DNA of 38,724 bases, taken from the NCBI GenBank assembly GCA_002633005.1, contig NMRA01001148.1, forward strand, positions 1-38,724. Reading direction: 5' to 3'. The stretch's first letter is position 1. Each line of letters begins with the position of its first letter. Origin of the DNA: Phoronis australis (taxonomy: Eukaryota; Animalia; Phoronida). A program made the position numbers and the translations under genes. Under the pieces are notes generated by a model. The model had not been told where the DNA came from and ran no database searches. It saw only the letters and a program-made list of their open reading frames with translations. Below, one piece after another: positions 1-38,473 of this stretch.

Positions 1-1400
1 TCATATTCTTTAAATCCCCAGATTTCCGCACGTACCACATACATGTAGTTAGCACAGCAATTTTATCAACCACCTCCAGTGATAGACTCAATGGTAGTTT
101 CGTGCTCTTGTTTCTAATTTTAGAGATCGACATAGCAGCATCACTACCTTGGCATGCCAGAGGTTTAGTCGTTTGGACGAAGCTAATCTTGGGCAAAAAA
201 TATTCCAAGATATTTATATTGTGAGGCAATCTCCATTAATTGATTTCCATAATACCACTTCTCATACAATCTGAGTGGCCCGCCATTTCTAAAAACAATG
301 ATCTTAGTTTTTCAGATTTACACTCATGCCCCAAGAAAAGCAATAACCATAAAAGTAGTTTAATATTCTTTGCAAATTTATTTGATTGCTCGAACACAGA
401 ACCAAATCATCATACAACAGCGATTTGACTTCCGGAGCATCTTCATTGATATCAATCCTTCTAATATTTTTGGCATTATCTAGGATTTCGATAAATTCGT
501 TTAGATACATCATAAACAATAGTGGGCTGATCATACACCCTTGCCTGGTGCCGACAGAACAGTAAAAAAGTCGGTTAACCCTTCTCGAGTCCTTACATAA
601 CGTAATTCGCTGTACATAGATTTCGAGACTTTAAGTACGTTACAATGGACGCCATTTTTTGAGTGGCATGTGAGGAACTCTGTCAAACGCCTTCTAAAAA
701 TCGAAAAAGCACAATAAAAACCACCCCAAGGCTTAGTGATGTACTTTTGTCCTGGCTGCAATAGCCGTTGCGGAATCCCGCTTGTGATTCACGATGTTCG
801 TCATTTGCCTCAGCCCATGTGCTAAGCCGGTTACTTAAAAATTTGGTAAACAGCTTTCCTACAGCTGACAGCAATGAGATACATCTATAATTGTTCTCAT
901 CTTCAGTGTTACCCTGTTTAAGTATGGGAACAATTATTGCGTCACACCAACCCTGTNGCCGACCGGTCGACGGCCGGTCGTCGACCAATTTCCGACCGGT
1001 CGGCCAAAAATTCGTGATGTGTGCTGTACATCTATAATTGTTCTCATCTTCAGTGTTACCCTGTTTAAGTATGGGAACAATTATTGCGTCACACCAACCC
1101 TGTGGGCAGTGACCTGTATAGCGAGAATCCATTGAGAAGCAGTTCCAATAGAGGAACAGCAGCTACTCTTGTACTCTTCAACATCTCAAACACAACATGA
1201 TCAATGCCATTTGGAAGAGTCAGTATAGCGCAGTCAGTTCAATCACAAGACAAACAAGCGTTCAGATCACTGGGGTAAATTTTGGTCACAAGTATCAAAG
1301 TAATTGTCATGATTTTCTTGTTGTCTTACGCCGGGGTCGAATTTTACATAGTGTCGCTCAGTTCTACCCGTTTATTGAGCAACGAATTAAAATGAATATT
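1..1400 (-). mobile_element. Degenerate LINE reverse transcriptase fragment (APE-RT non-LTR; CR1/L2/RTE-X group)
   Basis: Frameshifted ORFs give WCDAIIVPILKQGNTEDENNYRCISLLSAVGKLFTK..ESQAGFRNGY (RT N-terminal motifs), SPLLFMMYLNE, SLLYDDLVL (degenerate YADD) and KTKIIVFRNGG..YKYLGIFF. Confidence 0.92.
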
Positions 1401-3959: not shown

Positions 3960-4640
3960 TACACGTTGTCGCCCTTCTCTTCAATACTAAAAAGACAAGT
4001 TTTTAAAACGAGATTTCGCACCTGACACCTTGATTCAACCAAATTTCATAAAACCGTATTTTGATAGAAATTGCCTTATAGGAGATACCCAATTATTTCT
4101 TCCATTCCGATCTAAATCAGTTAACATGTCAAAAATGCATCATGTCAATAGGCGTTTTAGCGTGCGTATCTAGTAGGTGGCATTTTCAACTACTCTAGCC
4201 AACACTTTACACATGTGACATGGTACTTTGCATCGAGAGGACAAATTCCACATTCACCCAATACAGCTGCGTTTGAGCAACAGTTTCCAATTCCAACAGA
4301 AATTTTACAGAATTAAACACATACTTTTTCAAGCCATTCATATTCTTTAAATCCCCAGATTTCCGCACGTACCACATACATGTAGTTAGCACAGCAATTT
4401 TATCAACCACCTCTAGTGATAGACTCAATGGTAGTTTCGTGCTCTTGTTTCTAATTTTAGAGATCGACATAGCAGCATCACTACCTTGGCATGCCAGAGG
4501 TTTAGTCGTTTGGACGAAGCTAATCTTGGGCAAAAAATATTCCAAGATATTTATATTGGGAGGCAATCTCCATTAATTGATTTCCATAATACCACTTCTC
4601 ATACAATCTGAGTGGCCCGCCATTTCTAAAAACAATGATC
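3960..4640 (-). mobile_element. 3' part of the same LINE ORF2; 4338-4640 nearly identical to 1-303 (probable allelic haplotig)
   Basis: Direct sequence match to 1-303 with two substitutions seen, ending at n4641. Continues into LINE C-terminal residues (..DRNGRNNWVSPIRQFLSKYGFYEIWLNQGV). Confidence 0.85.
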
Positions 4641-8930: not shown

Positions 8931-10499
8931 AATATGTGAGTGAATAAAAATGTTTACATTTCAGTTGATGGTAGTTGCATAATAAACCTTGGCCAACTGG
9001 AAAACCACTACCACTTGAACAATCAACGAAGATAGGGGTTTGCCGCCTTGAACACAATGGCCTATTGAATCAGAGATTTCTTTGACCTGTCTAGTCGTGT
9101 CTGTAATGACACACTATACCTCAGTTGTGTCGCAAAATTGAACGATATTCCATCTGGCTGAATGAATCGTTATCTGGTGAATTTTATAGCAATATTTCAT
9201 GCAACATGGTGTAGTGTAGTGTAGGGGTGATTAAAAATTTTAATTCAGTACATAAATTAAATTGGGTTGTGGTACAAAATTTCACCAATAGCATAGCCAT
9301 CATGAAAGGCCGTCTGTAGTAAACAACATGGGCAAATCCTTTTGTAACCAATGTAAAATCAGAGATCATCTTGATCAATTGTCAAAAACGGTTATCCTAG
9401 GAAAATACATTTGTTGGGTCTCATTGGTAGCTGTGAGTGCTTTCTGCCTAAAAATTGCTTTAACTGGGCCGTGACAGATAAGCAGAGATTTGATTTTTTT
9501 AAAATCTGTTTTCAACACTAATTTTTAGTAATAAGCTGTTTGTTGTGATTAAAGTACATGTAGGAATTCAAAATAATTCAAACTTCAGTATTTAGGCTTT
9601 ATTGCTCTTTTGGAAGAGATTCTAAATTAAATTAATGTAAGGAAACAGATTATAACGATTGACCTTTTGCATGAACTTATCACTTCAGGTAAGCTTATGC
9701 TAGTGAAATGTGCCGCGCATTGGGATATAAATTTTCAGTATATTTGACCAATGCAAAAACTACCTGTCGTAAAATCCTGACTTCTCTTCAAAGACCATAA
9801 ACTAGAATACGATGAGAATGGTGGTCATCTTGTATTTGATACCTGTTGGCATTTAGAAAACTTGTTGTTCAAGAAAAGTAGGACTAAAAATTTTTAACAA
9901 GTAAACATGCCAGGCTTGCGCTAGCAGCTCGCCAGCTCGCCATTAGGGAATTCTGAGTGGCACTGCTACGTCCATTCGCCAACTTGGCGAATGTTTTCGC
10001 AACTTGATAATAAAAATCAATTTCGGAAAACCCACTCGCATGACGATTCATATGAGTCACCTCGAATCAAGTTGCGTAGCAAACGACATTCTTCCTTCTA
10101 TTCAGTCATAAAAATAGCAAGCCAATGTTTCATTTCATGCCCGTCACTCCTCCTGAAATCACTTTTTCACGAGACAAATTGTTCAACTCAATAGGGGAGG
10201 GGAGGAGAGGGGAGGGAGGGGATCAACACTGTTGGTAATGGCAATTCCTCGCTTCGCAGCGAGCTCCCAGTTGTCGTCTGCATGGGACATGAAATATGAA
10301 CTCATGCTTTAAATGTTCTATTTTCATATTACTGACTGTACTTCGGGAGCAAGTTTTCTGTTATACAGAATTTGTTGAATGCACGACACTTTTCATTGTT
10401 CACGGTCTTTATTCCGTTGCGTTCATACTTTCTGAACAAAACTCTACTCTCTACTGAACATAGATACAGTAACTGACCTAGCGACACAATTAAAAGACA

Positions 10500-10537
10500 C
10501 ACGATATTTCGAAACATACTTGTTTCATTCTCAAGTG
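10500..10537 (-). ncRNA. Minimal hammerhead ribozyme, U3-A8 core variant (copy 1)
   Basis: CAC-TTGAGAA-T-GAAACA-AGTA-TGTTTC-GAAA-TATC-GTG: stem I CAC/GTG, 6-bp stem II, AUC cleavage triplet. Confidence 0.7.
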
Positions 10538-10707
10538 AAGTGACTGTACTTCGGGAGCAAGTTTTCTGTTATACAGAATTTGTTGAATGCACGACACTTT
10601 TCATTGTTCACGGTCTTTATTCCGTTGCGTTCATACTTTCTGAACAAAACTCTACTCTCTACTGAACATAGATACAGTAACTGACCTAGCGACACAATTA
10701 AAAGACA

Positions 10708-10745
10708 CACGATATTTCGAAACATACTTGTTTCATTCTCAAGTG
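10708..10745 (-). ncRNA. Minimal hammerhead ribozyme, U3-A8 core variant (copy 2)
   Basis: Identical to 10500-10537. Confidence 0.7.
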
Positions 10746-11399
10746 AAGATAAAATGACGCAGTAATGCCACCACAGAGTATAAGCTGACGACACACACAG
10801 TGAGACACGGCGGGTGTGAAATACTGCAAAGAATGACTAATGAATTGGGGTAACAGGAAAGTCACGCAAACAAGTGTAACGTGCGGCGCGACCCTGTTTG
10901 CTGCTCATTCAAAATAGGCTTCTCAAAAGCAATTAAAAGGGACTCTAATACTTTCAAACGCAGCACATCTTGCTCCACGTAGCGAATTGACGTGTTTTCC
11001 ACAATTTCTTGACGGGTGATTTTACGTGCGTGGTATTGCAGAAAATGATCTTGAATGGCGCCATTTTGAAGATGCATGGATAACCGACGGGAAAGACTGC
11101 AAACCGTTTGACCATTGTAACATTGTTTGACGTTTGAACGAAGACATTCGTTCATAGGGCATACAAATTCATAAACAACACTACACGGTGCAACGGGGCG
11201 GACTTTCGCTTTAGAAATGTTATTTTTCATGACCAAGTTGGAGGACTTCCTATTGCTATTTCATATTACATGAATCTTTCCCAATTCATAACAAACTTAA
11301 CCAAATTTCAGCGCACAATTTACCGTGTCAAAAATTGGTTGAGACTTGACAAGGAGTAAAAGGCGCAGACGACGCCGGGAAGAACGAGTTTGTTTTCTA

Positions 11400-11877: not shown

Positions 11878-13194
11878 ATTAAAAGCCGGGCGATAGCCTC
11901 AAAAATAAAAAAGTCATGTTAAATCAACGTTTCATCTATTTATTAGGCCTCATCAGGATATTTCCAAAGGACGACAAGTGCCAAACATACAGCTCAGGTA
12001 ACATCCAAGAAGTGAAGTGAGAGAAACAGGGAATATACATGTAGTCAGTAGCTGGTCATCACCATGAGTAGTTGCAGAGTCACTGAGCTCTGCATGTTGT
12101 TCAGAGAATCAGTAGCATGCTGGTTCTGAATGGCCAATGACTCTTTAATGTACAGTAATTCATTATTAGTTTCTCTGCAGATAACACTAACTGAATTGGC
12201 TTGGTGGTTGTTGCTTACACAATGCCTATATATGTTGTTTTTCTCTGAGGGAGGTTTGATGTTCTTTCAGCTTGTCACAGAGGCGTCTCTGTGTGAGTCT
12301 CATATAGAATTCCTTACAGTTCTCACATTCAGTCTTACAAACAACATGCTTTTGTTCAATAAAGAGATGGTGACTTCAGTTTACACAGCATATTTGAAAG
12401 TCTCTGAAGAGGTTTGAAAACAACTATCAGTTCAATGGCTGGGTCTATGCAATGAATAAGGCGAGAAAATTGGCTATTCAATTTTGTACTACTTGGCGCG
12501 GTGTAACCAAAAGGGAAGAAAACTTTCTTTTTCTCGGGTCCAATAACAGCTACCTTATCCGCCTCATTCATTTTTGAAAGGAAATGCCTTTTACAGCTAT
12601 TTAAAAGATTCAGAGGATAACCATTGGCACGCAGTAACTGGTAAATCCTAGCTACGTCACTATCAAAACTTAAATTGGTGGATCAAATTCTCCAGGCACG
12701 ATGTAACAAGCAATTGACTAGACCTCTCTTGTATTGGATCGGCACAAAACTAACAAATTTAAGATAAAGCCCAGAAAAACTCGGCTTACCATACAGAGAT
12801 GTAACAACTGTGCCATTCTCACGTTTAACCAAGACATCTAGAAAAAGTAGGCCTAAACACGACTCGTGCTCAGATTCACTGGTGAAGTTGATGGATGGAT
12901 GCATATTGTTCATGTGATTGAAAAAGGTGTTGACTGAGCTCTTGGATGAAAACATAACAAACGAATCGTCTACATACCTACGATAAAATTGTGGTTTACA
13001 ATCCCGGTGGACAACTAGCCAGAGCCTCAGTCTCGAGATTGCACATGAAATTATAAGCTAACCCTGGTCCCAGGGGTGGACCCATGGCCAAAAAAGTTAT
13101 CATCAAACAGAAAATGGCTCTATTTAACTGCGATCGTGAGTGACTTACGTAATTGGTTATTGTGGCCAAAAACTGATTTAATAAACAATATCCG
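11878..13194 (-). mobile_element. Penelope/Poseidon-type PLE (RT C-half, decayed GIY-YIG, pLTR) inserted into the LINE B endonuclease
   Basis: AMG.PL, KPQFYRRYVDDSF, HPSINFT..FLDVLV, NGYP, CENC..Y. 12-bp TSD CTCTATATTTAG (11866-11877) / CTCTATGTTTAG (13195-13206). Confidence 0.9.
11923..11959 (-). ncRNA. Hammerhead ribozyme motif (stem II decayed)
   Basis: ATC-CTGATGA-GGCCTAATAAATAGAT-GAAAC-GTT-GAT; homologous to the intact copy at 34792-34828. Confidence 0.65.
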
Positions 13195-14690
13195 CTCTAT
13201 GTTTAGGGAATGTTCATATTTCCCCTCAAGCTTCCAGGCACGTAAATGAACCAAATTATGACAAAATCGAATCCCTGATTGCACAATTTAAGTCTCACAA
13301 TCCAAATAGCAATGTCATGCTGTGCGGTGTCAATGCGCAATCAGCCTCATTAGAAGATTTTGTTAACAATGAGACTGTAGTGCCATTACCTGATGATGAC
13401 CTAAATGATATGGGTTATGAGTACGATGCCCAGATACCGTCACGTGAGTCTCAAGAGAACGAGTGTAATAGTTATGGTCGGTAGTTGTTATACCTTTGTA
13501 AAAGCTGTAGAATTAGAATTCTAAACGGTCACAGTGGTAGTGATGTAGATACCGTTGAATTTAGTTTTATGAATACAAATGGAAGTAGTGTAGTAGACTA
13601 TTAAGTCAGTGAAGAAATTCTGACCTCAGTCATCGATTTTCAAGTCGGCGATCAAGTCGACTCTGCTGATTTTCCGTTGGAAATGATTATAGACGGGGAA
13701 GTGTTGTTTAACTTGCAAGTAAACTCACAATGTCAATAGAAAAGTAAACAGATTCATAATTTGGAAAGATGTAAATAAAAATAATTAGTTTGAAACTTGC
13801 AGTTGGTCGAAGGCAGTGGTTGTCTGGAAAATATGATATCAAGTCTTCAAAGCAACACGAGTAATGTTGACGAGGCCTTAGAGTGGAAGTATAATTTGAT
13901 TGTAAAATCAGGCTTAAGCTCCGATATGAGAAAAAACTGAGCCAGCAAAACGTAGATCAAAACCAGAAACATGGTTTGAAAGAGAATGCCATGGTTATAA
14001 GTTAATAGTACGTAGTTATTTAAGGAAATACAGACAACATGGAACTGGAGAAAATTTGTCAAAATATAGGGAATATAACACGAGATATAAAAATCAATAA
14101 AAACATAACAAAAAATATTCCGTAAAAGACTATCCAAAACACTGTTGGATTCATCTATGAATGAAATTGAAAAACAAATTTGGAACTGTGTGAAAGGTAA
14201 CAAAGAAGAACCGTCTTCAAATATTACACATACACTGTGGTATAACAGTTTTTCAATGTTTATACTTCTCAGATTGGAGACTATGACGTATTTTTCTCTC
14301 AGTTTCATGTATATGTTGAACAGTTTAGACACTTCTTTGAGTCAGAAGAAGCAATGCATAACATGGATGATCAGTCAGTTTTTAATAAAATTATTACTAA
14401 GTTTTGATGAAATAGATAAGTGTACGAATGACATGAAATTGGGTAAAGCTGCTGGAAATGATGGTATTTCGTTGGAATTTTTCAAGTTCGCAACACCCAC
14501 ATTTAAACAGTCTCTCGTTTGTCCGTATAATAAAATTTTTGATACGTGGAATTACCCGTCTCAAAGGAATTCAGGTATCTGGAAATAAGAATGACCCAGA
14601 CAACTACAGAGAATATTTGCCCAGTTGTTATGTAACCGACTACAATCATGGACGGATGCGAACAATACTGTGTTTGAGGCTCAGGCTCCC
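13195..14690 (+). mobile_element. LINE B continued: APE endonuclease, linker, RT N-terminus
   Basis: NVMLCG.NA, NSYGR*LLYLCKSCRIRILNG, NGSSVVDY, MKLGKAAGNDGISLEFFK, NDPDNYR, VFEAQA. Confidence 0.9.
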
Positions 14691-14829
14691 TTTTTGGAAG
14701 AATTGTTGAATAATCGAAATGGCGGGGCAGGTGGAGCTCTCGCCAGATACGATCTGTAGCACCATTCCAAGCAGCGGACAGGGCAAACCTGCCACCTCCG
14801 TTTCTGTTGAGTGACGGGCTGAAGTCTTT

Positions 14830-15420
14830 TGTACAATTTCGCCAAATAATTTCCACTTTTCATGATTCCTCAAGTATCCACCTTTCCGGACGACTATAAT
14901 TTTTGTCTTCGACATATTCATATGAAGCTTCCATTTATTTCAATATTCTTCTGGTTAGGTAATTAATGTTTACATAGCAGTGTCGGTTTCAGCGACTAAA
15001 ACCAAATCATCGGCAAACAACAAATATAAATTCAATATTCCACTATTTACACACGACGCCTGCACATTTTGTAAACCACTTTATAAATCATTTGTAAACA
15101 GCGAGAAGAGAAAGAAGACAACTGAAACCCTTGTCTTTCACCAATCGTAAATTGGAAAAATCGGTTACGTGACCATCTTCATTCAGCAAGACGCAAGACT
15201 TCACATTTTCATACATACTGTTTAGAATTTTATGCTTTTTTCCAAAATTCCAAAACTTGACATTTTATACTTAAGACCCTCTCGCCAGACCCAGTTGAAC
15301 GCTTTTTTAAATTCGACAAAAAGACAATAGAACCGGCCTCTACGATTCAATAGATATTTGTTAATTAATGTATCGAGAATAAACATGTTATTCACTGTGG
15401 AATATCCCTTCCTTGAAAGC
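14830..15420 (-). mobile_element. LINE B RT core, inverted relative to the upstream part
   Basis: RKGYSTVNNMFIL..FYCLFVEFKKAFNWVWR, LLFADDLVL, MNMSKTKIIVVRKGG. Begins exactly where the + strand part stops (QA|GFRKG). Confidence 0.88.
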
Positions 15421-16524
15421 TTTTCAACCATGTTAAAAGACTGGTCTTTGGTAGGCTCAAAATTTGCCCGAAGCTAACAAACGATTCGTACTGGGACGTA
15501 TCGTATTATATAAGCTCTGTGTGTCTGTGAATTGTGCATGTTCTGTATTCAAAACATTTGATTGTCTACGATCTTGAAGATACTTTTCCGCTCCATTTTA
15601 TTAGAATTAAAAACTTCATCAACAAATTTTAACGCAATTTAGTTCAGTCGAAACTTAAGCCTAAATAATGCTCACTCATAATAACTTCACTGAAATATCT
15701 TGAAATGTAAATCTTTATCTATCCACGAAATTTCATAATCAAAGAAATTAAACCTGTTCACCTGCACTATGGTTTCTTCAGCACTAGGGAGCGCTTTAAA
15801 GCAAGGTATTAGCTAGAGTCACTGAATGAGGAATAACCTACAATTTTCATGGAACATGTTGCATAACTGTCTACCTTTGACAGTGTGGTGAATACGCAGA
15901 TTCCGAAGACCCCAGAGCGAGAAACTGCAAACCTCACAAGCAGCAGACGTCGAAAACGCAGAAGGTTGTGACCATGCTCATTCGATAAGAAATTCGTCTA
16001 TTTCCGTGTGACGTTATCATGTGCATTACTGCGTATAGTGTGTAGTACCAAGAAGGCATTTCCAAGAAGGTAATGCCTTCCTGGTCATACGCAAAAGACA
16101 GTCGGGGGTACGGGTTGTTTCGATGACCGTGTTCACCGACACTACATGATTGTCGAACTGATTAAAGCATTCAAAGTATTGTACATGTATTGTCAATCAT
16201 GAACAAAAATTTCAGCGATTTTTAGTTCAAGTTTGACTCATCAAACGAAATAGCTACCTGTGGTACGAACCGCCCACGCAATAACCCGACTGTGTCCCGC
16301 GATCATGTAGGGATGTGGTCAAGGCCAAGAGAATCTTGAATACCGGGAATTAGAGATTCACCAGTTATCAGCATTGTCATGGAGCAGTGAAAGTGAAGAA
16401 CTGTGAGTTTATAAAATTTATGATATTTTTGCATTATGTGAGACCTGCATCCAGGCATGAGAAGGTAATTTCTCAGTCGCACTCGTATTTCCTGATCCCA
16501 GTTTTTTCATCTACCTTATCGGAG

Positions 16525-19423: not shown

Positions 19424-20870
19424 TATATATCAAAACGCTAAAATAAGGTCAAAAGAGGTCGCTAACTCCCGTCCCAACCCGACGCCTCCTTCCTCTTCTT
19501 TCCCGCGACTTAAAATCGCCGGGTTCTGCGGCGGCGACAAAACCCCCGGCGTGTTTTCTTCCTTTGTCTTGCTGAGTCGCGGCTTCAGTCATCCGGCCAT
19601 AACAACCTGTATTTACCGTTTACGCCTACTAGGTAGGCAGCTCGCTAAATATTCGGCGGCGAGAGAAATCGAAGAAACGATGTAAACGTTGAATAATATT
19701 CCAAAATTCGAATCAAACGAAAGCGTGGCCTTGACAGACAAATTGCCCTCTGGAATGAGTCTGGCAGAAACCGAAAAATGATCCTCCCAAAAATTAGCTA
19801 GCTCATACACTCGAAGTATCGCAAAAACAATTCCATGTGATTCAATACTTGTCAGTGATCACTAAATGCCCTATGACTGACAAAATACACTCTGGGTTAT
19901 GCCCGACAGAAACTCCCAAAAATGTCAACCACGGTATGCCATTGAAGAGCTGGATTAGATATTCGCGGTACCAACTAAACTGGGTGAATGAGTCGTGTCT
20001 TTCACCTTGTTCTCTAGTTTGAAATGTTTCTGAATTAAAATGGCTTCTATCCTGCAATTGAATTTGAGCCCAAAATTCAAAATTCTTCTACTATTAATGA
20101 CCATAATATCCCACACTACAGGACTGATTCCACAACAGGACTCTCGTAACGAACGCCGAAATGAATGATTAAAACAGGCAACCCGAAAGTGTTGACTCGT
20201 TGGACTACTACGAAGACGAACTAAAATCAGGAAATCCCCGGCGTAACAGTGCATGTATGGGCATAGGTTCGCTTCTTGCAAAAATAGAGAAAATGTGGAT
20301 CTATCTGCACTAAAGACTGGAATAAAGATTGAGATCTTGACCATTTAAAAGTACTTTTAGCGGAATGAATGCCGAGAGAAACTCGCACAGTCCAGTGGTA
20401 GTGGTTTCCCAGTGTGTGAAGGGACGCAACAGCAGCTCACAGAGTACTCGTACGCGGCGAAGAACAGGTGCGAGTAAAATGCTAAGGCCGCGCATTCGCT
20501 TCACTCGAATTTAGAAAAACAATTAAACATTTACACCGTTTCCTCTATTCTATTTCTCTCGCCTCAGAATATTTAGCACGCAGCCTAGTAGACGTTGACA
20601 GTAAACACAGGTGACGGACGAATACTTACGAATACTAATTTCGGCTAAGAGAAAGAAGCGCGTTCGCCGGATCGAAATCTCCTTGGTTGCACTCATGTTC
20701 CCTTCCCCCTAGTGGACACGTAAGAAACCAGCAAGAATGGAGATTGACGGCCTGAAACCAGGACTCAGAAAAACAAAAAAACGCCAATATTTTGTGACTG
20801 CAGGACCTGGCGCTTTTCCATCGCGGGAACGAAAGGGAAAGAGGCGTCGGGTAGGTCGGGCGTACCTTCC
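19424..20870. mobile_element. Pair of inverted ~300-bp repeats (19424-19720 and ~20495-20870), probable long-TIR DNA element
   Basis: GGCGAGAGAAATCGAAGAAACGATGTAAACGTTGAATAA vs inverted TTTACACCGTTTCC..ATTTCTCTCGCC; CGACGCCTC..TTCCCGCGA vs TCGCGGGAA..GAGGCGTCG. Confidence 0.65.
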
Positions 20871-20989
20871 GAAGTTTCCCAATGCAATGATTTTATTGTA
20901 TTGTGCAAGCACAGTGCATAGACTACAGCACCAGCCCCATCTATTGTCAGATTATTATAATCTTAGAGGTTTGAAAGTAATAGAGGGAA

Positions 20990-21574
20990 ATATCGTAAAG
21001 AGGTATTGTTCTGTTAACACCATAAGGAGCCAGCTGATGAATGTGAAAGACAAGACCACGAAAGAGAAAACATCAAATGTGTTGTATGGCGTTTCATGCT
21101 CGGAACCAGGGTGTGGGAAATCATTCATTGGGGAAACCAAACAAGCCCTAAAAAGTCGTATCAACCAACATCGTAGGCCCAGTTATGGGGACTGCTATGA
21201 TTCTGCAGTTTTTTGTCATATAGCTTCCACAGACCACTCTTTCGCCATGGAAGATGTCAAGATCCTAGATGGAGGGGAAAATTGGTTTAGGAGAGGGGTC
21301 AAAGAAGCTATTCACGAGAGAATTGAGAATCCTAGCCTCAACAGACAGGGGGGTTGAGGTTTCTCTTACCTAGGACGAGAGACAGGGCGCTGAAGAGGAT
21401 CCCGCGAAAACTGTGCGACAGATCACATGACGAGTCACGTGACAACTCAGTGGCCTGATGAAGTCCTCGACAGGAGGACGTAACGTAGCCATCTCTATGT
21501 AACAGTAAGTTCAGTAACAGATTTATTAATTTTTCTACCTTATTACAACAACTGGATGACCGAAAACATTCATC
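20990..21574 (+). mobile_element. 5'-truncated Poseidon-type PLE: GIY-YIG endonuclease and pLTR
   Basis: KDKTTKEKTSNVLYGVSCSEPGCGKSFIGETKQALKSRINQH..SAVFCH..RGVKEAIHERIENPSLNRQGG; hammerhead downstream; ends at n21575. Confidence 0.9.
21451..21491 (+). ncRNA. Hammerhead ribozyme motif with GAAA>GTAA core mutation
   Basis: TGGC-CTGATGA-A-GTCCTC-GACAG-GAGGAC-GTAAC-GTA-GCCA. Confidence 0.75.
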
Positions 21575-30244: not shown

Positions 30245-30282
30245 TATAAAATCTGACTGCCTACATATTAAAGATGGTCAGT
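30245..30282 (+). promoter_or_regulatory. TATA box and Inr-like motif of the secreted peptide gene
   Basis: TATAAAA at 30245-30251; TCAGT at 30278-30282; ATG 85 bp downstream of the TATA start. Confidence 0.6.
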
Positions 30283-30329: not shown

Positions 30330-30341
30330 ATGAAGACGTTG
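30330..30341 (+). CDS. Exon 1 (MKTL) of secreted cationic Cys-rich prepropeptide
   Basis: ACA-ATG-AAG-ACG-TTG|GTAAGT: A at -3, consensus donor, phase 0. Completes the signal peptide MKTLILLCAVFGILVGRLNA. Confidence 0.7.
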
Positions 30342-31969
30342 GTAAGTTGAGTACACCATCAAATTTATCTGAAGTGACGACAAACTAAAATATTTCTTTA
30401 ATCATTTTTACTTTTCAGTCATGAAATCTCCATCACATTTATATAACATTCGTGACTGAGTGTCAGATTTAAGACCACTGTTAGGGTAAAGCCCTTTAGG
30501 TTGACAAACGTTTTGCAGCGAAGGTATGATGTAGACATTAGAATACACGTGTCTAAGTAAACAATTTCATCTGGATGGAGATTGGTAACACTGAAAGGGT
30601 TCATCTATTCACAGTCCATATGAACGCACCTTGCTCTGAGAACTTGCTACCTCTCAGAGTCACGGGTTTAAGGTTATGAGTATGAATCGTGCAAAAATGT
30701 TAAAATTTCCTACCATCATATCTCTCATATGCGGCTGACCGGATTCAAACGAAACTTTAGTAACTTTAAGTACTTTTGCATTCTTCTCCAAAATTCTTAG
30801 AACTGTGTTTGATATATTTTATTTTTTGCACAAAGAACATTTGAAATATGAGACTTGTATGGTTTTATAATAATAATTTATGAAACTTTATCAGTGTTTT
30901 TGAGAGTTCACCTTGAATATGTTTATACAGCAAAAGGATTTTGACGTGATTATTTTCCAATGAATGTAACATTCTTTTTTAATGTTGCTGAAAACAATGC
31001 ACTGTCACGTGACCCAGTTAGTGTCAAATAACTTATGCCACGTTCATTCGATACGAAGTTCGTCTTTTTCCGTGTGACGTTATTATGAACATTACCATTA
31101 TACAGCTTTCGCAACGATTTTGGTGCGTTTTCCTTATTTTCGAATAAATTAAAATACGTAGGCTATCAAGTAAAGCTCCAGGGCTATGCAGATAGGCACT
31201 GTTATCTTGGCAAAAGTCTCCATCGCATCTCCCGTTTAATGTATTCAAAATGCTTCTTAAATCGTTGAGTTTCCACACTTCGAACTAAGAATACCGACCT
31301 CAAGTCCACTACCTCAATGACTACATTGCTCAGTTAATTAAGGTAACTGTGAATTTTATTTTCCAGGTTCTACTTACGTACAAATATCTTAAATTGTGTT
31401 AGCTGTAACCCCTACAAAATGTATATTTTTGAATGTAAATAGGTAAATAAAACAACAAGAATGGATCACCTGAAATTTTCGGATGTAATAACTTCCTTTG
31501 TCAACAGAAATTTTGAAAAATGAATAAATGTGCTAACAAATTGTATTAGAGATTTTTAAAGAGTTGTTCCTCCACCCCCTCTGAAACTCTGAAATGTTCC
31601 TCGAATGGTAATCAACAACGACAACAACGAGATGGCTAATGAAGTCTGCAAGATGCTAAAATTTCAAAACAAATTTAGTTTTGTGTAATGCTTTCGTGAT
31701 TTTAGAGGCATTGGGAGTTCTGGTCGACGACTATGCACTCCTTTTCGAGTTTTGAAATCCGATCTGCCAATTTGTACTGTAAACACAAGTTTAAGCGGTT
31801 TATAAATGTTATTTTAACAACACCAACAATTCCAAAGATTCTTATGTTCACGATGACACTGGTCATGAAGGTGACGTCATTTAGAAGGTTAGCATGACAA
31901 CCTAAGGACTTTGTAACTAAAATCGTGAGTTCAGATACAAAAATGATTGTCTTCATTTGACATTTCTAG

Positions 31970-32283
31970 ATCCTATTGTGCGCCGTGTTTGGGATTCTTG
32001 TGGGACGGCTTAATGCCGAAGAAGGGGACCAAGCTGGCGATGAATTGGTTAATTACGAAGAGGAAGAAGAGATGCTTCGTGAACTTAACAATGTTCTCCA
32101 TGATGACGACACTGATGACATGGAAAATGTGGACGAGACGCTAGGTGAAACGAAAGCAGAAGGCTCGTTGGATGAAAGTCAGAGAGGAAATTTGCCGAGG
32201 TGTCGTATGCGCTTGAAGAGGCTTAAATCATATAATAAGTGCTATGCCCTGAACCGACCTCTCGTTTATCGTTACTGCGTCAG
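31970..32283 (+). CDS. Exon 2: signal peptide core, acidic propiece, first part of mature peptide
   Basis: Acceptor TTTCTAG|ATC (phase 0); open frame ILLCAVFG...YRYCV; donor AG|GTAAGT (phase 2). Confidence 0.88.
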
Positions 32284-32665
32284 GTAAGTAAGTCTAAGTA
32301 GGCTTAAAACAATTCGTTGTAGAAAATTATTTAGCGTCATTCTGAACCCTTTCAAATTTCATATGCAATGCAGTTAATCGCTATTATATGTGTCATTTAT
32401 ATAGTGGAAAAATGGGGAGAACGATAAAGGTCAAAACATTGGCACACTTAATCGCTTATGCTTTTTATCCAGGTTCTAATTTTCTCCGTTAAAAGGTCTC
32501 AGATCGACCATCGAGAGAGATGAAGTTGTTTGGAGATGGGATAGAGTAGTCTTAACTATAATAATTGTTAAACAATATACCTGACGGAAAAACTATACAG
32601 GAGGTATGTTTTGAAGTTTTATTCTACACAGCCCAGCTGACTAAGTTTGTTTTATTACATTGCAG

Positions 32666-32798
32666 CGCTAGATGCATGTGGAAGGGACGAAAGGTAGCTT
32701 GCGCCAATAAGAGGAGGTTAACTCCGCGTTACATTAAATGCAGAGGATGTCGTCCAGTGAAAGTCGCCATACCAATAGTATCTTGCCGATGCAAATGA
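32666..32798 (+). CDS. Exon 3: C-terminal part of mature peptide ending CRCK-stop
   Basis: Branch-like CTGAC/CTAAG, pyrimidine-rich tract and TTGCAG|C acceptor. Phase 2 matches exon 2 (AG+C = Ser). Reads ARCMWKGRKVACANKRRLTPRYIKCRGCRPVKVAIPIVSCRCK*. Confidence 0.88.
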
Positions 32799-32935
32799 AA
32801 TAAGACGTATGTGCAGAAGCAATGTAACCGTTACACGCGCAATTATGGAGCATTCTTGATTATTTGCGGTAAAGGTTGCGCATACTGTTATTTTGATACT
32901 GGCGTCCGCACGTAATTCCTAGATTCAAGACATTC

Positions 32936-32936
32936 G

Positions 32937-32972
<36 letters not shown>

Positions 32973-32986
32973 CATACATACATACA

Positions 32987-33018
<32 letters not shown>

Positions 33019-33022
33019 CACA
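32936..33022. repeat. Compound (TACA)n/(CA)n microsatellite
   Basis: Directly visible. Confidence 0.97.
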
Positions 33023-33344
33023 TTTATCACTATAATTGGGCAGTGATCTTTCTGGTATACATATTTCATTGAAGACACGACTTTGATATGTTTTTACTAG
33101 TTTAATTTCAGTTCTTTCCAAGTGTGTGAGTAGTGATCTTGTCTTTACATCAACATGTGGGGATGAAAATACAGGCGACATCAGTAGGTAACATAATTTA
33201 AAAAGCGATATTTCGAGACACATATCTCATCTTCAGGCTACTATTTACAACTAGATAACAGTGAAATGCACATCAGAAATGACAAATTCAATATAATAAG
33301 TGAAGTTGGCATGCGCAACAATGACGATAAAAACATTTATAAAT
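33023..33344 (-). mobile_element. Solo pLTR of a second Naiad-like PLE family
   Basis: Hammerhead followed by ORF N-terminus KTRSLLTHLERTEIKLVKTYQSRVFNEICIPERSLPNYS, similar to the 10.3-10.7 kb pLTR peptide. GTACATACAT on both flanks (32936, 33345). Confidence 0.75.
33204..33239 (-). ncRNA. Minimal hammerhead ribozyme
   Basis: AGC-CTGAAGA-T-GAGAT-ATGT-GTCTC-GAAA-TATC-GCT. Confidence 0.75.
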
Positions 33345-34447
33345 GTACATACATTGCTGTGTAACAGAATCTATAGATCACCTAAATGATGAAAGAGTTC
33401 TTAGAGTTCCAGTTAGCTGTTCGCTGGGACGCTGAAGAAAACGTCAACACTAAAAAATGCCCATTAGCATGAGCTCAATACATAAAAATTGACACCCTGC
33501 AAAATTAGAAGTTTTGAGCCTGTTTCGAGAGAATCACCCAGTACAGCCCATAAACATCTTCCATGCCACCTGGGTCAATTGTGTGTCTGGTCGTAGATAC
33601 GGGGTCGTATTCACGAGATTGCGAATGTGGTGTTTCTTTGATAGAGATGAACCATCGCAAATTCTACCGTACACCGTATTCGTGCTCAATAAGCTAGCTA
33701 TGCCAGTGAAACTTAGGGTAGACATATAGGTACGACCGGGCATACAATCCGTGACAGAACAGGGAAGAGGATGATTTTCCACAAATTTATGCCGTACAAC
33801 GTTTTCTTTTGTCCTCGAAAAGGTCAATGGCAACGAGCAGAAGGCGCGACGATGACTTTCTCTTGCACAGTTTAAAATACATGTATTATTGACAATTGGC
33901 CTAATGGTTGCTGCCCGTCATACCTATCTCACTGACACTAACTTAAATTTGCTAATAGATGAGATTCAATTCCATCGAATTTGTTACGCTAACATGTGTC
34001 TACTAACGAAATAAATATTACAATAACAGCGTCAAGTGTTAATTGTTTAATTTTAAGGATTTCTTGGGACTTTGAGCAGCAATCCCTTTCTTTCAACGCT
34101 TGCAAGTGTTGATTCCCCATTTGCCTTGGTGACTCCTATCGGCACATCGCAAACTATTTATATTAAACTATGCTACAAAAGACTGATATCATTATTTTCC
34201 AATTGCAGACCAAGCATACAGTCCCTACTAAGTCCACCTATAATTTCAAGTGTCACCATAGGTTGTTTTCCGTAGACACAAGACACTTGCGAGCACGGAT
34301 AGTGCAGTGAGTCATGTGCTTCGGTTGCCGAATACACATCTCAAGTGACTTGCGTTTTTGTGTGCGAGTTTCCATGTTGCGTCTACGCAACGTACGCTCT
34401 CTCAAATTTCATGGCTCACTGGTGAGGTCCCAAAGTAGGCAGTGGTA

Positions 34448-34900
34448 AGATTATAAACCGGACGATCGCCGCACAAATGAAGAATTCCATGTTAAATCAA
34501 CGTTTCGTCTATTCATCAGAGAAAAGCAACATATATAGACACTGTGTTAGCAACAATCACCAAACCAATTCAGTTAGTGTTATCTGCAGAGAAACTAAAA
34601 AGGAAATAGCGTACATTAAAGTCATTGGCCATTCAGAACCAGCATGCTGCTGATTCTCTGAACGACATGCAGAGCTCAGTGACCCTGCAACTATGGTGAT
34701 GACCAGCCACTGACTATATTCTCTGTATTTCTCACTTCACTTCATGGTAGTCACCTGAGCTGTATGTTGGCACTTGCTGTCCTATGTAAATATCCTGATG
34801 ATGTCTAATAAATAGACGAAACGTTGATTTAACATGAACTTCCTCATTTGTGCGGTGATCGTCCGGTTTTCAATCTTACTGTGGCCAAGAACTGATTTAA
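34448..34900 (+). mobile_element. Short PLE insertion (same family as 11878-13194) with inverted partial pLTR
   Basis: 34520-34880 is the reverse-complement homologue of ~11878-12240; 34448-34520 is an inverted copy of 34804-34876. Perfect 12-bp TSD TAGGCAGTGGTA (34436-34447, 34901-34912). Confidence 0.9.
34792..34828 (+). ncRNA. Minimal hammerhead ribozyme, intact core
   Basis: ATC-CTGATGA-T-GTCTA-ATAAA-TAGAC-GAAAC-GTT-GAT. Confidence 0.8.
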
Positions 34901-35149
34901 TAGGCAGTGGTAGTTTCCCATTAAAATAATACTCATTTCGAAATATAGCACATAAAGAAGGCGAGTATAAAGCTATGAGTTATAAGTAAAACTGGGAAGA
35001 GATAACCAGGATCTTGGTTATCTCTTCCTGGTAAAACATAACATGACTCTGAAGGTAATTTACTAAACATAATTTGAACATGTCCATGAACGTCTGTTGA
35101 ATTTCACTTAAGCTTCCCTCTTCCGCCACCATTGTGATGACGTTTCAGA

Positions 35150-36500
35150 TATACTGTATTCCAAGTACATAGATTTCAAGACTTTAAGTAAGTTACCATG
35201 GACACCAATTTTTTGTAATCTAATACCACAGTAACACATGAGGAACTCTGTCAAATGCCCTCTAAATGTCGAAAAAAGCACAATAAAAACCACCCCCGTG
35301 CTAAGTGTTGTACCTTTGCCTTGGGTGCAATAGCCGATGCGGAATCCCGCCTGTGATTCACGACGTTCGTCATTTGCCTCAGCCCAGGTGCTAAGGCTTG
35401 GGTTCAACCCATGACGTTAACATATTTATTTTTTTTTAATTTTGCGTGTTTCTTTATGAGTTGTGCACTAATGGCACTAAAATTAAGTAAGATATAATAA
35501 TAAAATTTATTTTGAGGTACTAGAGTCATGTTGTGTACACTTTAATAATTTGGTGAACAGCTTTCCTACAGCTGAAAGCAATGAGATACCTCTATAATTG
35601 TTCTCATCTTCAGTGTTACCCTATTTAAGTATGGGAACACTTATTGCGTCACACCTAGACTAACCCTGTGGGCAGTGACCTGTATAGCGAGAATCCATTG
35701 AAAAGCAGTTCCAATACACGAACAGTAACTAGCTACCCTTGTACTCTTCAACATCTCAAACAAAACATGATCAAAGCCGACTGCTTTGCCATTTGGAAGA
35801 TTCAGTAAAGAGCAGTCAATTCAATCACATGATAAACAAGTATTCGGATCACTGGGTAACTTTTGGTCACAAGCATCAAAGTAATTGTCATGATTTTCTT
35901 GTTGTCTTTCGGCCGCATTTGACATAGTGTCGCTCAATTCTATCTAGGACTATAATGTTCATATTACTCCCAGGTTCTATCCGTCCATTGAGCAACGAAT
36001 TATAATAAACGTACCACTGTTTTGGAGTTATCAAAGTTTCCTTCGGACTACAATTAAAATTTGATGTTACCAGAGCCCTTAATTGCTTTGGATTATTTCT
36101 GCTATCCGAAATATTTTCTAGCAACTTCGATTGACGCTCTTTTTTTCATTGAATAGTATGCGAAATTGTTTCTTATTTTCTTTGTGTAGGCCTACTGCCA
36201 ATTTTCCAGGAGAGGAATATCTGCGAAAAATATTCAAAGATGGATTTTTAGGTTTTTGCAGTTTGAATTCTTTGTCCCACCAAGGGGGTTGTTTTCTCTG
36301 CCGTTTAGCATAAACACGTTTCTTTTTAAACATTGCCATCGATGCAGCAGTTTATTTATACAGATTTGTGACACCATCTGTTGCACTTTCTATGTCGCTA
36401 CGGGAAATCTGTTCAACTATTCGATCTAGACTTTCTGATAGGCAATTTGAGAACACTTCATGGAATTCTGCTACACGGCCACAGTCCCACTCTAGGTGAG
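35150..36500 (-). mobile_element. LINE fragment paralogous to 600-1400, interrupted by a ~145-bp insert (~35397-35543)
   Basis: LSTWAEANDERRESQAGFRIGY and QPPWWDKE linker; collinear DNA similarity to the copy at the window start; insert ends TACACTTTAA. Confidence 0.9.
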
Positions 36501-37062: not shown

Positions 37063-38210
37063 ACTAGAAAGATTATTGTCACGGCGTGACAATAACGGAC
37101 TCTGCGCATGCGTATTACTGGAATTATTATGGGAAGTTACTGACAGCAACCCGTTTACCAATATGAAAAGGAATTCTTTAAAATTGAACGAGAAATTACA
37201 TATTAATTTTTTGATGACTTTTCCACTGATTGACCTCTTCCGGTGCATTATGAGCCCCGATGAGGGAGTAATTGTTAACTCGATTAAAAGTGTGGTTAAT
37301 GCTAATAATCACAGATGTTTTACTTTAAGCACTTCAGAATACAAGATGAATGAAGTGGTCAAACTTTCAGAAGAAAAATGCACCTAATGACCACATGGGT
37401 GCACCAAATGACCTGAAAATTTTGAATTCAAAGTCAATCACACTTAGTAAACAGATACGTAATTCTGAAGTTTCTAACTCAAAATTTTAGTTTGCACTCA
37501 ATGACCTTTGACCTATTTTTTCTGATTGGTTAGGCCTATTGCGAAGTAAAGCAGGGTATTCACTTGGCATGTTGACTTACACAAGTGTGCTGAAATTGAA
37601 AAGAATTCCTTGAAAAACGTAAGAGATATAAGATTTTGAACGTTACATGACCTTTCCACTAATTGACCTCTTCCGGTACATTATAAGCCCCTATGAGGGA
37701 GTAATTGTTAACTCGATTAAAAGTGTGATTAATGCTAATAATCACAGATGTTTTACTTTAAGCATTTCAGAATACAAGATGAATGAAGTGATCAAACTTT
37801 CAGAAGAAAAATGCACCTAATGACCCCATGGGTGCACCAAATGACCTGAAAATTTAGAATTCAAGCTCAATCGCACTTAGTAAACAGACACGTAGTTCTG
37901 AAGCCTCTAGCTCAAAATTTTAATTTGCACCCAATGACCTTTGACCTACTTTTTGATTGGTTAAGACTATTGCGAAGTAAAGTAGGGTATTTAGTTATTA
38001 CTGGAATTATTATGGGAAGTTACTGACAGCAACCCCTTTACCAATATAAAAAGGAATTCCTTAAAACTGTAGGAGAAATTACATATTAATTTTTTGATGA
38101 CCTTTCCACGAATTGACCTCTTCCGGTGCATTATGAGCCCCTAAGAGGGAGTACTTGTTAACTCGATTAAAAGTGTGGTTAATGCTAATAATCACAGATG
38201 TTTTACTTTA
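37063..38210 (+). mobile_element. HINE/Helentron-like element with ~435-bp internal tandem array (~2.5 units)
   Basis: Starts ACTAGA plus hairpin TTATTGTCAC-GGC-GTGACAATAA; units ~37113-37560, 37561-37991, 37996-38210 with TGACCTTTGACCT motifs. Confidence 0.7.
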
Positions 38211-38473
38211 AAGAGGAAATTGCAAGGTCCAAACCAATCTGAACAACAATATGGTCTAAATTCTAGTTTATAATTATCATTGCTATATTCTTAACCTTTT
38301 CTGAATGGGGCTATTCGGAGAATTCTCCTCGTGGTGTCGCTGCTGTACTAGTGGTGATTGAATTGCGCATGCGTGGCTGTCTGCATGTAAACAAATGGTA
38401 AAAGCACAGGCGTCCTCAGCTTCTGATCGTCCCCAATACACTACATATAATACTACAAGGTAGGACACTCTCG

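Follow-up and report, generated by a model that had tools for sequence, protein, structure and literature searches.

Growth-factor cystine knots are familiar from receptor ligands and from ligand traps. They are defined by a disulfide between cysteine (Cys) I and IV that threads a ring made by the II–V and III–VI bonds (PMC4079206). Here, we analysed a gene within a 38,724-nt stretch of DNA from the phoronid Phoronis australis (GenBank assembly GCA_002633005.1, contig NMRA01001148.1, positions 1 to 38,724; hereafter the window). The gene encodes a secreted-type precursor whose 76-residue, +23, nine-Cys end, judging by its sequence, may fold as a compact growth-factor knot and serve as a lineage-restricted host-defence peptide, a reading to which we assign a probability of about 0.4.

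Several described systems come close to this peptide in one respect or another. The knots with an eight-membered ring, namely the CTCK/DAN/hormone class, carry the signature CXGXC (PMC12203953). Gremlin, a nine-Cys heparin ligand able to form a disulfide dimer, follows the pattern CX13CX8-9CX3CX14-18CX2CX13CX15-18CXC, with a fingertip disulfide and knot gaps of 22/23-3-17/21-29/32-1 (PMC8835488). Invertebrate IL-17 keeps all six knot Cys; by eye, C-x4-C occurs in about 23 of the 41 invertebrate IL-17 sequences in part 1 of the three-part supplement, and an oyster IL-17 has, likewise by eye, gaps of 21-4-7-33-1 (PMC4517768). Hydra noggin, with the pattern CX22CX5CX7CX14CX10CX12CXCXC, forms a ten-membered ring and has knot gaps of 22-5-7-38-1 (bioRxiv 10.1101/510602). 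The recruitment of a knot into a secreted weapon already has a precedent in sigma-conotoxin GVIIIA (PDB 9EBE), a 5-HT3 antagonist; according to a 2025 report, no invertebrate venom peptide had been shown by experiment to have a growth-factor knot before it (PMC12203953). Finally, anionic propeptides that neutralise cationic mature peptides have been described for sea-urchin antimicrobial peptides (PMC10608444).

Cysteine frame and its closest counterparts

The nine Cys occupy precursor positions 82, 95, 107, 112, 121, 134, 137, 149 and 151, and the chain ends C-R-C-K-stop. On the spliced translation, the gaps are 12-11-4-8-12-2-11-1 with a terminal CxC, exactly as an earlier sequence-only reading of this DNA had given them. 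The growth-factor-knot order (I...II-x(n)-III...IV...V-x-VI, with two long fingers) is matched by exactly one set of six, Cys82, 107, 112, 121, 149 and 151 (gaps 24-4-8-27-1), and the three spare residues, Cys95, Cys134 and Cys137, fall at the middles of both fingers, that is, at the fingertips. A hairpin centred on C134–C137 places Cys121 opposite the residue between Cys149 and Cys151. The segments PLVYRY, RYIK and VKVAIPIV, previously described as strand-like, do have the highest strand propensity (1.1–1.25), as estimated by a Chou–Fasman-type calculation, which is a weak method. Judged from this spacing, a growth-factor-type knot is the probable fold of the mature region. The knot template was chosen after the sequence had been seen and real peptides are not random, so the rates obtained with shuffled sequences serve as guides only: the broad template with fingertip Cys was fitted by 37 of 20,000 shuffles (0.185%), or by 2.15% with the terminal CxC fixed, the same template without the fingertip condition by 1.96%, and a narrower one by 0.06–9.3%. 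A gremlin register, in which Cys137 would be Cys IV and finger 2 would span 11 residues, lies outside the shuffle template and was ranked low, as it leaves Cys95 without a fingertip partner.

The sequence-only reading had assigned the peptide to the CTCK/DAN/glycoprotein-hormone type. The knot spacing it relied on fits, but the label proved too narrow: the mature region ends in CxC and lacks CxGxC, contains neither CxxxC nor GxC, and yields no fit with a ring gap of 3. CxxxxC rules out the eight-membered class and is yet ordinary in the knot superfamily; it would give a nine-residue, IL-17-type ring and, far from being atypical as had been supposed, is a common ring spacing of invertebrate IL-17. 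With its observed gaps, the peptide also departs from the DAN/CAN pattern, quoted above for gremlin. It shares with gremlin/DAN/CAN and CTCK/hormone knots the nine Cys, the terminal CxC, a CxxC, both fingertip Cys and a basic surface, and finger 1 has 24 residues compared with 22–23 in gremlin. In contrast, its ring gap is 4 without Gly (CX3C in theirs), its heel has 8 residues instead of 17–21, its CxxC lies at fingertip 2 rather than before Cys IV, and it has an acidic pro-region and no sequence match.

In IL-17, the C-x4-C/CxC pair forms the ring, and the same ring spacing, together with a short heel, is present here. However, when the three IL-17 motifs (DPNR..P..I.EA.C, C.P[IV]Y..I.VLR and V[GA]CTC) were compared by eye, the first and third were absent and the second partial, the remnants being an N-R-P, spaced differently from Cys II, and a terminal V-S-C-x-C, which indicates that the peptide is not an IL-17. 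Moreover, most IL-17 sequences carry an extra Cys within the x4 gap, where this peptide has an intron-split Ser, and its extreme positive charge and acidic pro-region set it further apart. Noggin, noggin-like proteins, trunk and PTTH resemble it in the short heel (7 residues versus 8 here), two Cys in finger 2 and the length of finger 1 (22 versus 24), but noggin has a ring gap of 5 rather than 4, and the peptide is much smaller, has the extra Cys95, lacks the third terminal Cys and shows no sequence match. Sigma-conotoxin GVIIIA is likewise a small secreted effector cut from a precursor, with its knot outside growth signalling; it differs in that it has ten Cys and the canonical CxGxC, and its fingers are very short (knot gaps 4-3-9-10-1). 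Outside the knot superfamily, the hallmark of CS-alpha-beta defensins and macins is a helical CxxxC bonded to a strand CxC, and that of ICK knottins and beta-defensins is adjacent CC. A motif check found neither CxxxC nor CC, which speaks against the CS-alpha-beta and macin folds, named beforehand as examples of structures that would count against a knot.

Gene structure, transcription and a paralogue

The segment 32186–32798, which holds the mature region, is not a single open reading frame (ORF); it comprises parts of two exons (the 3′ part of exon 2, to 32283, and exon 3) and the intron between them. The three-exon gene model (Table 1) gives a 152-residue precursor with a signal of about 20, an acidic pro-region of 56 and a cationic nine-Cys region of 76 residues. 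Both introns have GTAAGT donors and pyrimidine-rich AG acceptors. The mature 76 residues contain 14 R and 9 K (23 K/R) and zero D/E (isoelectric point 10.8, 9.0 kDa, net +23), and the near-match of this charge with the −20 of the pro-region suggests that the latter shields the producer and aids folding. The pro-region ends in E-S-Q-R, presumed to be a monobasic cut site. In its plan (signal, judged by eye, anionic pro-region, cationic mature peptide), the precursor conforms to cationic antimicrobial prepropeptides such as the sea-urchin strongylocins and centrocins, whose mature peptides also contain Cys; it differs from them in the length of the pro-region (56 residues versus 15–30) and in the Cys frame, and no such knot is mentioned for them in the accessible part of the source (PMC10608444).

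CVSARC is created across the intron 2 splice, which divides the Ser codon as AG|C (32282–32283 / 32666). Among the 23 AG sites tested in 32500–32720, only 32665 and 32671 keep all nine Cys as acceptors; the second, 6 nt downstream and in frame, would leave a two-residue gap instead of four and was rejected on read depth. A 77-codon ORF at 32565–32795 starts inside intron 2 and is not the gene.

Transcription was assessed in about 18–19% of each of three raw-read runs (X1–X3) and in a fourth run available as contigs (X4). Exons 2 and 3 were matched at 99% or more by four reads in X1 and by none in X2 or X3. By depth arithmetic, the four reads form two pairs, one covering about 31969–32155 and the other representing a single fragment of about 113 nt that contains the end of exon 2 and sequence from 32666 onward, with nothing between. 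Depth is a full 2 from 32666, the preceding bin holds 6 bases (2 reads times the CAG common to both ends), and the intron 2 interior shows no 99%-like depth. This pattern supports intron 2 with its acceptor at 32665, and hence the four-residue gap, from one molecule only, as the skipping is read from the depth bins of one fragment and no splice joint was listed at the threshold of 3 reads. No match to the exons appeared among the X4 contigs, although this does not prove the transcript absent. Weak as its expression is, the gene is transcribed and its RNA spliced. Downstream of the stop codon, which is followed closely by a (TACA)n/(CA)n microsatellite at about 32935–33020, a few X2 reads, mostly sense, lie at 33007–34008 and end before the first AATAAA-type signal near 34010; they possibly represent a long 3′ untranslated region or are repeat-derived.

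A second transcript was found at 80% likeness on the signal exon only, with 71 reads in X3, 7 in X1 and 6 in X2 at the best-covered place, all in the sense direction, so that it is about tenfold higher in X3. Compared with 31970–32018, it is identical at 43 of 49 nt, and the six differences fall in four codons, all four of which encode a changed residue. Directly behind the signal exon, likeness drops below 80%; by our own translation of the reads, the start of the pro-region is different yet acidic, with about 4 of the next 10 residues in common. Families of defence peptides and of toxins likewise keep their signal while the rest of the precursor changes fast. In X1 and X2, a few reads of the paralogue run on into a stretch similar to the last part of intron 1, which indicates a shared gene structure. 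Exon 1 of the locus itself has no reads in the RNA runs, and 52 X3 reads join the near-identical four-codon start of the paralogue to the start of exon 2. The paralogue is absent from the window (blastn and tblastn), and none of its reads falls on the mature region. The gene family has at least two members, and the present one is a real, expressed, orphan prepropeptide; in metagenome contigs, a DNA pattern gave 0 matches and a protein search 0 confirmed among 389.

Proposed function and competing explanations

As a host-defence peptide, the product would be made with its acidic pro-region masking the cationic domain in the secretory pathway, and a convertase cut after Arg76, or after RLKR88, would free that domain. 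Cys82–Cys121 would thread a nine-residue ring closed by Cys107–Cys149 and Cys112–Cys151, and a bond from Cys95 in fingertip 1 to either Cys134 or Cys137 in fingertip 2 would connect the fingers. Such a two-finger sheet, locked by disulfides and resistant to proteases, would present Arg and Lys as well as Tyr and Trp on its surface, and might attach to the anionic surfaces of microbes, damaging or clumping them. A bolder version, which we put forward tentatively and consider doubtful, sees here a lineage-restricted, fast-diverging antimicrobial family built on a growth-factor knot with an IL-17-type nine-residue ring and a charge-matched acidic propeptide, that is, a cytokine or hormone scaffold turned polycationic weapon. 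When the sequence-only reading spoke of a hormone-type knot repurposed as a polycationic effector, the effector half found support in the precursor anatomy and in a paralogue that keeps the signal but diverges after it; descent from a hormone did not, and no sequence link to any knot family emerged.

The odd Cys has at least three accounts: a covalent dimer (as suggested earlier), cleavage at RLKR, or a two-chain product. The spare Cys134 or Cys137 could link chains, as in gremlin, but a cut at RLKR would leave eight Cys, which weakens the dimer; a covalent homodimer has perhaps one chance in three. Whatever the function, a cut after RLKR88 could produce a 64-residue, eight-Cys monomer, with Cys95 as knot Cys I and fingertip 2 closed by C134–C137, or else two chains that Cys82 keeps together, either making the homodimer unneeded. 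This processing variant is somewhat unlikely: the site is a canonical R-X-K-R, the loss of Cys82 evens the count, noggin has two Cys at the same place in finger 2 (bioRxiv 10.1101/510602) and two-chain antimicrobial peptides exist among the centrocins (PMC10608444), yet the motif is common by composition (about 50% of shuffles contain it somewhere, and 5–11% have it between the first two Cys) and, in the full register, sits on a finger strand, where it may be shielded. Neither the homodimer nor the cut wins.

Several observations weigh against a knotted defence peptide. With 4 reads in one of the three raw-read runs, the product of this copy is not abundant in the samples concerned; the CxGxC signature is absent; and 20.9% of shuffles fit the broad template when CxC is fixed and the fingertip condition dropped. 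The reads of the paralogue cover its first exon, its signal exon and the start of its pro-region, so a shared Cys frame would be conjecture. All searches for relatives used single-exon pieces and thus had low sensitivity to distant ones: Pfam at E<=10 returned no family for either piece (half-domains being insensitive queries), PDB sequences gave no match to the exon 3 piece, protein-cluster searches gave 0 of 2 and 0 of 1 candidates, and two Atlas searches gave no usable match. A HMMER scan of 1.84 billion representatives returned one match (P0003, E 1.5e-4), rejected as an unrelated repeat protein without the Cys frame. The exon 3 AlphaFold2 model (predicted local distance difference test score, pLDDT, 62.5; predicted template-modelling score 0.29) shows four short strands instead of one long hairpin and has no match in the PDB (Foldseek, VIA), and the exon 2 model has a helix at 2–14, the signal-peptide stretch, and a helical or disordered mature part (pLDDT <50); as single-exon fragments modelled with no alignments, they neither support nor refute the knot.

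In one alternative, which we regard as unlikely, the product is a cationic peptide used in defence or as a toxin, it has its own beta-rich, disulfide-bonded fold, and the resemblance of its spacing to that of a knot is coincidental. The knot is deduced from spacing through a post hoc template that 2–21% of shuffles fit with CxC fixed, and neither fragment model contains knot fingers; on the other hand, the register is unique and has Cys at both fingertips, the motifs of macins, CS-alpha-beta peptides, ICK peptides, beta-defensins, Kazal and Kunitz domains are absent, and no other framework is known to fit. A venom or deterrent peptide is rather improbable; the precursor, and probably the knot too, would be as described, but the targets would be membranes, channels or receptors in other animals. 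A signal, an acidic pro-region and a Cys-rich mature part, with the signal conserved among paralogues, is the standard plan of toxin precursors too, one sample shows about tenfold higher expression of the paralogue, and sigma-conotoxin GVIIIA offers a precedent (PMC12203953). However, a charge of +23 without acidic residues is seen more often in peptides that bind membranes or glycans than in receptor-selective toxins, the gene is very weakly expressed in the samples read, and the animal is not known to be venomous. Very unlikely is a divergent member of the knot superfamily (IL-17-, noggin-like/trunk- or DAN/sclerostin-like) that serves as a signalling ligand or as a ligand trap and binds heparan sulfate through its basic surface. 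The spacing is close to those of invertebrate IL-17, noggin and gremlin, the last a nine-Cys heparin ligand able to dimerise through a disulfide (PMC8835488), but the three IL-17 motifs and CxGxC are missing, neither exon piece has a Pfam match, and the paralogue changes quickly beyond its signal. Nor are these families marked by an acidic pro-region of matching charge.

If a knotted defence peptide is indeed encoded here, animal defence peptides would gain a new fold class through a knot that acts on microbes directly, and with it both a small stable scaffold and an example of a fold for signalling put to use in killing. No description of an antimicrobial peptide with a growth-factor knot was found in the literature searched, which left subscription journals mostly outside, and a prior description is possible; the accessible parts of PMC9071555, bioRxiv 10.1101/2024.05.31.596435 and PMC13608440 contain no matching peptide. 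Even without the knot, the locus represents a family of secreted peptides for which single-exon queries found no relative in any collection searched; should the fold be otherwise, it would be one more orphan cysteine-rich cationic peptide of modest interest.

Features of the window

Table 1. Features of the peptide gene and of its surroundings in the window
Feature	Position	Strand	Basis or remark
TATA-like box	30245..30251	+	Read from sequence; putative
Initiator-like TCAGT	30278-30282	+	Read from sequence; putative
Exon 1 coding: start codon and first four signal codons, then GTAAGT donor	30330..30341	+	Gene model
Intron 1, phase 0	30342..31969	+	Short dispersed repeat near 31430-31510
Exon 2 coding	31970-32283	+	Gene model
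Remainder of predicted signal peptide, residues 5-20	31970..32017	+	Hydrophobic run with small-residue end; judged by eye
Acidic pro-region, 56 residues	32018..32185	+	Translation; 23 D/E and 3 K/R, net about -20
Mature region, exon 2 part; predicted finger 1	32186..32283	+	Cys82, Cys95, Cys107 codons at 32201, 32240, 32276
Furin-like RLKR between Cys82 and Cys95	32210..32221	+	Motif; predicted cut
Intron 2, 382 nt, phase 2	32284..32665	+	GT-AG (GTAAGT...TTGCAG)
Exon 3 coding and stop; predicted heel and finger 2	32666..32798	+	Two X1 reads, 99%+ alike
Exon 3 Cys112, 121, 134, 137, 149, 151	codons 32673, 32700, 32739, 32748, 32784, 32790	+	
GIY-YIG-bearing (Penelope-like) retroelement remains	10865-11260, 12359-13196, 20713-21354	-, -, +	Weak Pfam GIY-YIG matches below cut-off
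Broken LINE-type reverse-transcriptase pieces, several copies	307-1162 (-), 13049-15473, 35111-36426		
300-nt duplicate	1-300 and 4338-4637		99% identical
Tandem pair, 208 nt	10333-10748		Exact
Three-copy array	37164-38346		433-450 nt spacing

The window is animal-type DNA of 36–44% GC, filled with retroelement remains, and no other intact-looking gene was found within it. Short dispersed repeats at 31430–31510 and about 34440–34500 attract many partly matching reads in all four RNA runs. One piece of a GIY-YIG element, at 20941–21354, has 8 relatives at 37–70% identity.
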